Source: a virus (Duplodnaviria; Heunggongvirae; Uroviricota; Caudoviricetes). From it: 36,585 bases of DNA. The notes beneath the pieces were generated by a model. The model was not told where the DNA came from. It searched no databases and saw nothing but the letters and a program-made list of their open reading frames with translations. The DNA lies in the IMG/VR virus record IMGVR_UViG_2778261448_000005. One strand, given 5' to 3'. Positions within the stretch are counted from its first letter, which is position 1. Every line of letters begins with the position of its first letter. Positions 33,237-35,589 of the stretch are shown here, piece after piece. The translations under genes were made by a program, and so were the position numbers.

Positions 33237-33497
33237 ATGTTCCGTTGTCCGCTTTGTGGCGCATCTGCCCGTATCCGCACCAGTCGTCCGGAAAATGATT
33301 CAAACACCGTGCGGCAAAAGTATTACCAGTGTAACAATCTGGAATGCGGCGTATGCTTCTCAACACTGGAAGCCTTCCATAAATTCACATCAAAACACGC
33401 CTCCGGCGTTCACTCTTCAGAAGGTATCCCGTGGCATGAGCTGCCAGCTTCACACAGGGGAAACAATCAGATGAGTTTGCCTTTACCTCAGAATTAA
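33237..33497 (+). CDS. ogr: Ogr/Delta-family zinc-finger late-gene activator
   Basis: MFRCPLCG ... YYQCNNLECG Cys4 arrangement as in P2 Ogr, in the P2 ogr position after D. Confidence 0.75.
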   Translation: MFRCPLCGASARIRTSRPENDSNTVRQKYYQCNNLECGVCFSTLEAFHKFTSKHASGVHSSEGIPWHELPASHRGNNQMSLPLPQN

Positions 33498-33687
33498 CAG
33501 GCAGAATTGCCGGAGTAACAAAAAAGCGATAGATTACGCGCGGGTGCCTTTCGGCTGATGGTCGGAGGGAATACCCGATGGCCGGATGTGGAAAGGCCCC
33601 GGAAAACACTTTTGTTTAACCGAGGCCCTAACCGTCTACCCTAAGCAAGTGATAGGTTAGCGCCTCCCCGAAAAAGGAGCAAGCGCT

Positions 33688-33828
33688 ATGTCGCAAAAAT
33701 CGCTTACGGCCATCACGTTCTGCGTGACGGTAATCCTCATCATCTGGATGCTGCACGGTTCGCTGTGTGAAATACGGATGAGCTTCTGGGGAGCGGAGTT
33801 TGCGGCGTTCTTACAGTGTAAGCAGTAA
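33688..33828 (+). CDS. Hok/Gef-family type I toxin, 46 aa
   Basis: Not in the ORF track (under 60 aa). Translation MSQKSLTAITFCVTVILIIWMLHGSLCEIRMSFWGAEFAAFLQCKQ: N-terminal TM helix plus the conserved SLCEIR and AAF blocks. AAGGAG RBS upstream. Confidence 0.55.
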   Translation: MSQKSLTAITFCVTVILIIWMLHGSLCEIRMSFWGAEFAAFLQCKQ

Positions 33829-33837
33829 GGAAACCGC

Positions 33838-33859
33838 GACGGGGGAGTAATCCCCCGTC
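33838..33859 (+). terminator. stable GC-rich hairpin at the 3-prime end of the hok-like gene
   Basis: GACGGGGG-loop-CCCCCGTC, 9-bp stem. No clear U-run, so a terminator role is uncertain. Confidence 0.35.
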
Positions 33860-34090
33860 AATCGGTTGCCAGGGTAAGGTCGATAAGGCACCCTATCTCA
33901 CAGCTCTAAATGCCAAAATTCCATGAAACTGTGGGATTTTTGCATCACATACTGATACAGACCAGCCCTTCTATATGCCTCACTCTATACCAGCTAATCA
34001 ATTGACACTTATCAATAAAAATAAATCTGATAAAATCAAAATGTTTTGTAACAAATATCAACTCGTATTAATCCAAAGGAGGCGGATTAC

Positions 34091-34423
34091 ATGGCATTAA
34101 TCAAATGTCCTGAATGCCAGAAAGAGGTGAGCGATTCAGCATTGTATTGCCCTGCTTGTGGTAAACAACTGCAAAAACTTAAGCGTTCATTTTTTGGACG
34201 GATCATTAAGTGGGTTTTTATATTATTTAATATTTTTATGATCTATACGCTTTTAGTTGGACTAGGAGGCACTAGTGAAATAATAAATAATGCCACATCC
34301 GATGCCGAAAAAGCCGGTGCAGTTATTGGTACAGGCTTAGGTTTAATTACCATTGGAAGCTTATGGGTTATTGGCGATATCATTATCGGAATTTTAGTAT
34401 TTCTTACTAAACCAAAGGGATAA
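34091..34423 (+). CDS. zinc-ribbon membrane protein, AT-rich cargo
   Basis: N-terminal CPECQ ... CPACG zinc ribbon followed by two hydrophobic helices. GGAGG RBS. Low GC. Confidence 0.5.
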   Translation: MALIKCPECQKEVSDSALYCPACGKQLQKLKRSFFGRIIKWVFILFNIFMIYTLLVGLGGTSEIINNATSDAEKAGAVIGTGLGLITIGSLWVIGDIIIGILVFLTKPKG

Positions 34424-34427
34424 TAAA

Positions 34428-35321
34428 ATGAAAAATATAATTTTTTCTATAGGTGCATCATTTATATCAATTAGTGTACTGCCTGTTCAAGCAGCAACTG
34501 AACATAAGAACTTCAATGCAGTACTCCAGTGCCGAGCAATAGAAAATAATAAAGACAGACTTTCTTGTTACGATAAGTCAATACAACCGACTCGAACGAA
34601 AGTTGCTGAAAAATTCGAAAGCAGAGATCAATGCCCTGATGAGAAAGATGATGATAGACGTTTATCTTGTTATGATCGTTTCTTTTCTCCAACATTTACT
34701 CCATCTGTAAACTCAAAATCTAAAACGGAAAAGCCAGTAACAACAGAGGCTCAGCAACCAAATCTTTCTGAGATATCTAAATGTCGTGCAGAAAATGATA
34801 AAGAAGCCAGACTAAACTGCTACGATAAACTATTCCCACAGGATAAAATCGCTCAAGCTGAATCAAAATTAGAGAAAGCCACAGATGTAGGAAAATGGCA
34901 CACATCCATTACTACATCGCCAATTGATGATTCGAAAAATGTAATTTTATCGTTAGAAAGTGATGATTATATCAGAACTCCATTTGGAGAAGCGGTTACT
35001 CCTACTCTTTTTATAGCTTGCCGAGAAAAGAAAACCGAAGTATTTCTTAGTTGGGATGTATATTTAGGCCTTGAACAAACCAGCATGCTTTATCGCCTTG
35101 ATAAACAGAAAGCAGTTGAGCGAAACTGGCTAGTATCTACAGATACAAAGGCTGTTTTTTATAAAGGTAATGACATTGATTTCATCCGAAAACTAGCCAA
35201 CTCAAGCAAAATGTATACAAAAATAACGCCTTATAATGAGAGCCCCGTAAGTGCAACTTTCAATTTAAACGGCCTGTCAAACGCGCTAAAACCGCTTCAA
35301 GCTGCTTGTAACTGGAAATAG
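34428..35321 (+). CDS. secreted protein with three Cys-x(n)-RLSCYD repeats, AT-rich cargo
   Basis: Signal peptide (MKNIIFSIGASFISISVLPVQA). Three repeats (CRAIENNKDRLSCYDK, CPDEKDDDRRLSCYDR, CRAENDKEARLNCYDK), then a roughly 150-aa C-terminal domain. Low GC. Confidence 0.5.
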   Translation: MKNIIFSIGASFISISVLPVQAATEHKNFNAVLQCRAIENNKDRLSCYDKSIQPTRTKVAEKFESRDQCPDEKDDDRRLSCYDRFFSPTFTPSVNSKSKTEKPVTTEAQQPNLSEISKCRAENDKEARLNCYDKLFPQDKIAQAESKLEKATDVGKWHTSITTSPIDDSKNVILSLESDDYIRTPFGEAVTPTLFIACREKKTEVFLSWDVYLGLEQTSMLYRLDKQKAVERNWLVSTDTKAVFYKGNDIDFIRKLANSSKMYTKITPYNESPVSATFNLNGLSNALKPLQAACNWK

Positions 35322-35404: not shown

Positions 35405-35423
35405 GTGGTCACTGCGTGGACAC
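35405..35423. repeat. candidate attR core, direct repeat of 11-29
   Basis: GTGGtCACTGCGTGGACAC, matching the copy inside the int 3-prime end. Confidence 0.4.
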
Positions 35424-35589
35424 GCGCTGACATAAATCCTTTTACATCAATAAATTAAGTCATCATTTTTTTCATCAACAAGGATTTTCACGTTTGTGTT
35501 ACCTGTATGAGACGAGAGTTAACCGGACAAGTGTGCCATAATCTCGCGGCCAGGCATACTTGCGAAGATTTCAGGTATAAGGATACGTA

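Follow-up and report, generated by a model that had tools for sequence, protein, structure and literature searches.

The window, the whole 36,585-nt stretch of viral DNA analysed here (IMG/VR record IMGVR_UViG_2778261448_000005), is a P88-like, P2-type prophage (Peduoviridae, Xuanwuvirus) positioned between pdxB and flk of E. coli. Most of its length aligns with PhiR44_2, Chuche and P88 at 96–97% identity, and the integrase lies at its left edge. At the opposite end, a 20-nt repeat lies directly before flk; E. coli CRE1540 has the same sequence as the window throughout the 421-nt query (33480–33900), and in that genome the integrase abuts pdxB, with another copy of the repeat beside it. With this repeat as the att core, the hok gene falls inside the prophage, as cargo in the interval between ogr and attR, which also holds a low-GC gene pair encoding a zinc-ribbon membrane protein and a VasI/TagO-like protein.

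Directly downstream of ogr lies a 46-codon ORF of the Hok/Gef family, surrounded by a set of predicted RNA elements that together delimit a compact unit (Table 1). A preliminary description of this DNA had proposed at this position a type I toxin gene with an N-terminal transmembrane helix, SLCEIR and AAF blocks, a strong ribosome-binding site, a GC-rich 3′ hairpin and no intact overlapping upstream reading frame. All of these features are found at the locus, and the assignment to the Hok/Gef family of type I toxins holds for the protein and agrees with the predicted hok/sok architecture of the flanking RNA.

Table 1. Features of the hok locus and its prophage surroundings, in window coordinates.
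Feature	Position	Strand	Description
ogr (late-gene activator)	33237–33497	+	Last conserved P2-type gene before the cargo; Pfam Ogr_Delta 52.4 bits, E 5e-14; RefSeq
Predicted hok promoter	33507–33535	+	-35 TTGCCG (33507–33512), 17-nt spacer, -10 TAGATT (33530–33535)
Predicted full-length hok mRNA, conserved mobile unit	33542–33893	+	~352 nt, in a ~354-nt unit at 33540–33893; from homology limits, folding and Rfam
5′ tac-like element	33542–33556	+	GGGUGCCUUUCGGCU; two mutually exclusive predicted partners
Short upstream ORF	33586–33660	+	MWKGPGKHFCLTEALTVYPKQVIG; 24 codons; conserved AUG; ends 14 nt before the hok Shine–Dalgarno sequence; not mok
Predicted Sok-like antisense RNA	33588–33647	-	~60 nt; single-stranded 5′ tail, long hairpin (33629 to 33594), UUU tail
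ucb-like internal partner	33590–33600	+	GGAAAGGCCCC; pairs with the 5′ end in truncated folds
Hairpin at the site of the mok Shine–Dalgarno sequence and mok AUG in R1 and hokW	33622–33666	+	GAGG at 33622–33625; GUC at the AUG position
Predicted Sok promoter	33654–33682	-	-35 TTGCTC (33682 to 33677), 17-nt spacer, -10 TAACCT (33659 to 33654)
hok Shine–Dalgarno sequence	33674–33679	+	AAGGAG; 8 nt before ATG
hok CDS	33688–33828	+	46 aa; Hok/Gef family, cluster 72 sequence 1628; ATG start, TAA stop
Downstream arm of the predicted 10-bp long-range helix sequestering the hok AUG	33799–33808	+	Pairs with 33688–33697
GC-rich 3′ stem-loop	33838–33859	+	GACGGGGGA-GUAA-UCCCCCGUC; 9-bp stem, GUAA loop
fbi-like 3′ fold-back element	33878–33893	+	GGUCGAUAAGGCACCC; complementary to the 5′ end
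attR core	35469–35488		TTTTCATCAACAAGGATTTT; same 20-mer beside int at the 5′ end of pdxB in E. coli CRE1540

The translated ORF yields the peptide MSQKSLTAITFCVTVILIIWMLHGSLCEIRMSFWGAEFAAFLQCKQ, in which residues 6–22 constitute the most hydrophobic 17-residue window (Kyte–Doolittle mean 2.58) and coincide with the N-terminal transmembrane helix. BLASTP aligns its conserved core with R1 Hok (39% identity) and HokW (34%), and this core includes the SLCEIR block (against LCEVR) and the AAF block, both of which align with R1 Hok. By inspection, residues M1, C12, T14, L26, C27, E28 and E37 are the counterparts of all seven positions (M1, C16, T18, L30, C31, E32 and E41) that are conserved in more than 80% of Hok peptides (bioRxiv 10.1101/2025.08.07.668861). 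Profile searches against the Hok families place the peptide firmly among them: Pfam HOK_GEF (PF01848) matches at 30.1 bits against a gathering cut-off of 22 (E 3.7e-7), spanning profile positions 5–42 of 42, and PHROG 251 ('MokW-like host killing') provides a full-length match at E 2.5e-23. The top NCBIfam match is the HokA equivalog NF007290 (35.8 bits, E 6e-9), so that among named Hok subfamilies HokA of E. coli K-12 scores highest; because this score is far under the equivalog cut-off of 89 bits, the window Hok is HokA-like rather than a HokA orthologue.

Comparison with relatives indicates that the ORF is maintained as a protein. It is intact at 46 aa in nearly all of the approximately 80 unique units, and 13 of the 15 variable sites among close relatives fall at codon position 3. 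The corresponding dN/dS is 0.04 among close relatives, a value biased low by the choice of this set by protein identity, and 0.22–0.5 against distant members, a pattern that points to purifying selection on the Hok ORF. That the frame arose by chance and carries a fortuitous Hok-like motif is vanishingly improbable. Its very small size of 46 codons and an Rfam score under the gathering score would be compatible with such an origin, which is nevertheless refuted by the Pfam match above cut-off, by the strength of the PHROG match, and by the retention of the full-length unit in about 1750 genomes with a bias in codon position.

The gene itself is already known, being both annotated and catalogued, and near-identical variants have been tested experimentally. 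RefSeq lists the identical locus as 'Hok/Gef family protein' WP_000078920.1, beside an ogr/Delta-like gene, and phage P88 gp52 (YP_009113095.1) carries the identical peptide, encoded by DNA that is 94.8% identical. The peptide is also identical to unique sequence 1628 of cluster 72 in the 2026 survey of Escalera-Maurer et al. (bioRxiv 10.1101/2025.08.07.668861). The gene had been described as unannotated, which is correct for the ORF track available to that reading alone and incorrect for RefSeq and the phage records; the novelty thereby implied does not survive the RefSeq entry, P88 gp52 and the catalogued peptide. The same survey (bioRxiv 10.1101/2025.08.07.668861) cloned and tested two further members of cluster 72, namely 72_1621, a one-residue variant (V15A), and 72_1589, the form found in Stx phages; among the 45 homologues tested, only 19_179, 60_1482 and 69_1540 are listed as non-toxic. 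Those assays used the CDS alone behind a constant Shine–Dalgarno sequence, not the native locus, and since mok, Sok and the mRNA elements were deliberately omitted, the regulatory anatomy described here is absent from the survey. The sole point that appears mildly new, judged from sequence comparison, is the systematic absence of mok in the abundant cluster-72 Hok clade.

The unit is widespread and occupies diverse positions. The 421-nt query region is 100% identical in at least 11 complete E. coli genomes, and of 5426 complete E. coli genomes about 1750 contain a homologous unit, with up to nine copies per genome and about 2980 genomic copies in all. Related units were collected from a BLAST listing together with a DNA-pattern scan, the alignment query having returned near-identical loci only. 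Homologous units reside in Xuanwuvirus P884B11, Chuche and PhiR44_2 and, at 82% identity, in many Stx2a phages. Specifically, the unit again follows ogr in AR_0104, a P2-like prophage at serS; in lambdoid prophages it is located after lom or between J and a tail-fibre gene, and in non-phage islands it adjoins an L31 paralogue. Strain N51 carries three tandem copies beside serS. Across these unrelated contexts homology starts at the hok promoter and ends at GCACCC (33888–33893), limits that delineate a mobile unit some 385 nt long with a predicted mRNA of about 352 nt. The span of 33500–33860 first assigned to the locus is too short at its right edge, where the unit reaches 33893 and includes the 3′ fold-back element.

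Transcription would be driven by a promoter that retains TTGC and TAnATT at fixed spacing in 10 of 11 homologous units (TACAGT in the remaining one), with the sequence further upstream diverging among the 11. Its -10 element aligns with TAGAAT upstream of hokW. By our own count the promoter has 8 of 12 consensus matches, against a scan threshold of 9. A sigma-70 and terminator scan of 33400–34100 found neither the hok nor the Sok promoter and reported just the minus-strand reading of the 3′ hairpin; because the consensus scan missed both, the promoter calls rest on conservation and homology.

From the predicted transcription start, the putative hok mRNA folds with a minimum free energy of -157 kcal/mol (z -5.2 versus shuffles), and RNAalifold analysis of 46 unique relatives yields 97 pairs, 13 of them with compensatory changes. 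The covariance-model search gives a divided result: Rfam RF01794 ('sok') aligns on the plus strand at 33542–33701 over its full length (model positions 1–157, E 5e-8), but its 43 bits lie below the gathering score of 59. Other cluster-72 members score 42–51 bits, R1-like hok 87 and hokW 113. In R1-like hok and hokW, too, RF01794 matches the hok-sense strand and spans the stretch between the start of the mRNA and the hok AUG, so that what it actually describes is the hok leader. Other Rfam matches in the region (CsrC and snoRNAs, E 0.3–8) are weak and were set aside as chance.

The predicted fold-back switch centres on the 5′ tac-like element, which is invariant in 45 of the 46 unique relatives, the exception lacking a C in the UUUCGG run. 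In the full-length fold, 33542–33556 pairs with 33878–33893, closing the molecule end to end; removal of 25–45 nt from the 3′ end redirects the 5′ end to 33591–33600 in both predicted MFE and ensemble folds, and the RNAalifold consensus also recovers this internal pairing. The 3′-terminal 24 nt are the top duplex partner of the 5′-terminal 20 nt in every clade variant (-24.8 to -29.5 kcal/mol), ranking 0 of about 90 windows across the whole mRNA even though the 3′ sequence varies, and the ucb-like site is the second-best partner (approximately -23.9 kcal/mol) in nearly every variant. The 5′–3′ pairing is uninformative on covariation because it is nearly invariant. As predicted, tac/fbi closure and the tac/ucb switch reproduce the published R1 model, in which tac/fbi closure gives way to a tac/ucb switch after 3′ processing (PMC9841398).

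Downstream of the ucb-like site, the hairpin at 33622–33666 forms in folds of the truncated mRNA, and its pairs are conserved. The hok Shine–Dalgarno sequence, the strong ribosome-binding site of the gene, has a predicted probability of being unpaired of about 0.5 in full-length and truncated folds alike. The hok AUG is predicted to be held in a long-range helix in both folds; almost all pairs of this helix are invariant in the consensus structure, leaving it uninformative on covariation. The GC-rich 3′ stem-loop contains five of the 13 pairs with compensatory changes, in 4–12 sequences each, and a homologous hairpin also follows hokW.

On the opposite strand, the predicted Sok-like RNA is complementary to the stretch of leader lying under the Rfam sok model and, with the ends predicted in Table 1, folds at -27.4 kcal/mol (z -4.6). 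In each of the 30 variants compared, the antisense strand gives a more stable hairpin than the sense strand, a difference due to conserved G–U pairs that turn into C–A on the sense strand. This strand asymmetry of folding energy was used for the Sok hairpin in place of covariation, which yields no compensatory pairs there (the outer stem is invariant, and inner-stem indels are misaligned by MAFFT). The predicted Sok promoter is weak by consensus. Its AGGTTA and GCAAG motifs are nevertheless invariant in the 46 unique relatives, and GCAAG together with the AGG-TAGC core of the -10 region is invariant in an alignment with hokW and R1-like hok. It occupies a position homologous to that of the R1 Sok promoter, TTGCGC-17-TATCCT.

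The most distinctive property of the leader concerns mok. A search of all three frames that allowed ATG, GTG or TTG as start found no mok-type ORF over the hok start in the window, and neither an in-frame extension of Hok nor a start at the position homologous to the mokW and R1 mok AUG is present. The absence of an intact overlapping upstream ORF, noted in the preliminary description, thus applies to every plus-strand frame. In the alignment, the canonical mok AUG is lost, the window reading CCGTCT opposite CCATGC of hokW, and relative to R1 hok 8 nt are missing between the conserved GCAAG and the hok AUG. An N-terminal extension of Hok is precluded by an in-frame TAG at 33658–33660. A mok-like ORF of 61 codons is seen in relatives such as AR_0104, but these form a minority; the idea of a private frameshift in an otherwise conserved mok was therefore rejected.

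The only conserved upstream start is instead the AUG at 33586, which is overlapped by a GUG in another frame. Its GATGTG context is invariant in the 46-sequence alignment and is found in 74 of the 76 units that retain the hok start. Among the 74 unique units that could be analysed out of about 200 loci, the ORF opened by this AUG ends before the hok Shine–Dalgarno sequence in 68 and overlaps the hok AUG in 6, and any frame with an ATG, GTG or TTG start spanning both the Shine–Dalgarno sequence and the AUG occurs in only 23. The encoded peptide is not conserved between the two leader-loop classes. Upon 3′ truncation, the predicted probability that the upstream AUG is unpaired rises from 0.06 to 0.66.

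The architecture described above is paralleled in R1 hok/sok, which likewise encodes a small toxin with an N-terminal transmembrane segment and an LCE core, followed by a GC-rich 3′ hairpin. The RNA predicted for the window resembles the R1 system in an mRNA of ~350–390 nt, in tac/fbi closure with tac/ucb pairing after 3′ trimming, and in a cis antisense RNA of ~60 nt whose promoter overlaps the hok Shine–Dalgarno region. R1 Hok differs in length (52 versus 46 aa) and shares 39% identity over 31 residues. R1 also possesses mok, whereas the window has lost the homologous AUG and carries the in-frame TAG upstream of hok; in hokW and in an R1-like plasmid copy, the AUG within the hairpin equivalent to 33622–33666 opens a frame across the hok Shine–Dalgarno sequence and start. 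The hokW-sokW locus of Stx2 prophage Sp5, experimentally established as a type I TA system (Takada et al. 2021, PMC8621323) and assigned a lysis-helper role through its raising of Sp5 phage release (PMC8621323), is likewise prophage-borne and shares with the window a very similar mRNA 5′ end (beginning GCGGGUGC) and a similar 3′ hairpin. HokW, at 51 aa and 34% identity, falls in a different cluster; its gene carries an in-frame mokW extension of 70 codons, absent from the window, and resides in a lambdoid rather than a P2-type phage.

Collectively, the prophage very probably carries as cargo a functional type I TA module of the hok/sok type, combining a fold-back/3′-processing switch and a Sok-like RNA with translation of Hok that is either independent of mok or assisted by the short leader ORF. 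In this arrangement, modelled from folding and comparison, a weak constitutive promoter would produce a stable mRNA of ~352 nt whose paired 5′ and 3′ ends keep it closed and inert. Slow 3′ trimming would take off the fold-back element, whereupon the 5′ end would re-pair with 33590–33600 and the leader would refold, exposing the region complementary to the short, unstable Sok-like RNA (approximately 33647 to 33588 on the opposite strand). As long as the element is present and transcribed, Sok would pair with the leader, and the mRNA would be silenced or degraded. Once the supply of Sok ends, as might follow prophage loss, prophage induction or a transcription shut-off imposed by another phage, the 46-aa Hok would be made, and its N-terminal helix would insert into the inner membrane, leading to cell arrest or death. 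Because no mok frame is present, unlike in R1 hok and hokW, Hok is probably translated from its own AAGGAG or with the aid of the 24-codon upstream ORF. By analogy with the Hok family, prophage stabilisation would be the default role of such a module.

The absence of mok bears directly on whether the native mRNA is productive at all. In R1, stop codons introduced into mok upstream of the hok start abolish toxicity, and translation of mok is needed at least up to the hok Shine–Dalgarno sequence (PMC9841398). The cluster-72 clade therefore departs from one defining feature of the R1 paradigm; were the R1 rule to apply, the native transcripts of mok-less loci might yield no Hok. The window could accordingly harbour a silenced relic in which mok has been lost, Hok is untranslatable from the native mRNA and the unit persists merely as a hitch-hiker on mobile elements; the lack of a hok-overlapping ORF, the replaced mok AUG, the R1 requirement itself and the predicted burial of the hok AUG in a long-range helix in both folds would all fit such a state. 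The conservation pattern disfavours it, however, and we regard it as quite unlikely. The toxin ORF is intact in nearly all of the ~80 unique units, with third-position variation at 13 of 15 sites and dN/dS of 0.04–0.5, while the 5′–3′ pairing, the 3′ hairpin and the antisense promoter and hairpin are kept across relatives of 75–100% identity in many contexts, and the unit has been duplicated in tandem.

Two further possibilities retain a functional module and assign it a role other than prophage stabilisation. The module might chiefly boost the release of phage upon induction, with Hok damaging the membrane ahead of holin and endolysin. The cluster-72 unit also lies close to tail and lom genes in lambdoid and Stx prophages, which would suit this role, as would the behaviour of hokW-sokW: the yield of Sp5 halves or doubles depending on whether that locus is present, and HokW appears after induction (PMC8621323). 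HokW is nonetheless a member of a different Hok cluster from a different type of phage, and the unit considered here also occurs in non-phage islands. P2-type phages, moreover, are generally not known to be SOS-inducible, and overall we consider a principal role in lysis rather doubtful. Alternatively, the module might act in defence by abortive infection, the lysogen dying once a superinfecting phage has stopped host transcription and Sok has decayed. Defence cargo is often located at prophage ends. R1 hok/sok on a high-copy plasmid lowers T4 plating, as cited in PMC8621323. A PADLOC search with Hok and the two neighbouring cargo genes gave no match, however, and this role appears unlikely.

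The consequences for annotation are small, as standard pipelines already call the Hok gene of the window. The case illustrates how type I toxins escape ORF tracks that impose a minimum length. RNA-based annotation in turn misses the regulatory part, because the Rfam 'sok' model scores the cluster-72 clade under its gathering threshold. At the level of the phage, the locus marks the ogr–att interval of P88-like prophages as a cargo site.

The broader implication concerns the clade rather than the single locus. In most cluster-72 members, the only conserved upstream AUG opens an ORF of 1–29 codons, situated inside the Sok target and terminating short of the hok Shine–Dalgarno sequence. We tentatively suggest, as a possibility somewhat short of even, that cluster-72 hok loci represent a mok-less variant of hok/sok in which the Hok ORF and the whole RNA switch are under selection. 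If the suggestion is correct, Sok would control Hok without mok coupling: it could block translation of a short leader ORF, which would otherwise open the downstream hairpin, or act through purely duplex-triggered decay of an mRNA that initiates at its own strong Shine–Dalgarno sequence.

Matches to the Rfam family RF01794 ('sok antitoxin') lie on the hok-sense strand in the window, on the plasmid pMTY1886 and in a further comparison locus. They extend from the 5' end of the hok mRNA as far as the hok AUG; the family effectively models the hok leader. Across the abundant clade of Hok cluster 72, the family to which the hok ORF of the window belongs, the model scores 42–51 bits against a gathering score of 59, and these loci are therefore missed by Rfam-based annotation.

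Within the window leader, a T-for-A change lies just upstream of the conserved AUG. The T is shared with one close relative, while more than 90% of relatives carry A at this site. The resulting GAUGG replaces GAAGG, thereby weakening the only SD-like sequence of the upstream ORF, and the variant also creates an additional AUG. On pMTY1886, a mok-type AUG lies upstream of the R1-like hok and in frame with it, such that the fusion would comprise 71 codons; the same in-frame arrangement is found in hokW/mokW, the hok/sok copy of the Stx2 prophage Sp5. The annotation of the pMTY1886 record covers only the 33-codon 3' part of this gene (558–659) rather than its full ORF.

Features of the window and comparison loci (L-handles)
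Feature	Coordinates	Context
RF01794 matches	window 33542-33701; L094 332-503; L095 603-777	hok-sense strand
T-for-A change	window 33578-33580	GAUGG vs GAAGG; 4 nt upstream of conserved AUG 33586
R1-like hok	L094 501-659	IncFII plasmid pMTY1886; full ORF 52 codons, start at 501
STAXI and EFASI matches (Rfam)	L091 4549-4722; 5251-5366	E. coli N41 island
Two-gene cargo	window 34091-35321	between hok and attR; low GC
Repeat CACTGCGTGGACAC	window 35410-35423	another copy near int
att core, 20 nt, TTTTCATCAACAAGGATTTT	window 35469-35488; L006 1294-1313	second copy at pdxB 5' end
Three tandem hok units	L088 1557-2870	E. coli N51, adjoining serS; period ~474 nt

Between hok and attR, the cargo pair has a GC content of 32–39%, compared with 50–55% in the phage. 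One of the genes encodes a 110-aa zinc-ribbon protein (PHROG 6586, unknown function) with a C-terminal part that looks hydrophobic by eye. The product of the other is a VasI/TagO-like protein of 297 aa (88.8 bits against Pfam VasI; PHROG 1848) with three Cys-containing 'RLxCYD' repeats. P88 instead carries another gene at this position. The flanking sequence examined on each side of the pair contains no type VI secretion cluster, and a PADLOC search of the pair returned no matches.

The pdxB–flk interval is the integration site of the window prophage, and the repeat CACTGCGTGGACAC may be an integrase arm site. Related prophages sharing the ogr–hok end are located at serS instead. On the N41 island, RNA matches to STAXI and EFASI lie approximately 2 kb downstream of the hok copy; the STAXI match, at 78 bits, exceeds the gathering score of that family, while the EFASI match, at 46 bits, falls short of its own. 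In N51, two of the three tandem units encode MPQKTIIV... peptides and the third an MSQKSL... peptide, indicating that the hok module duplicates and diversifies in place.
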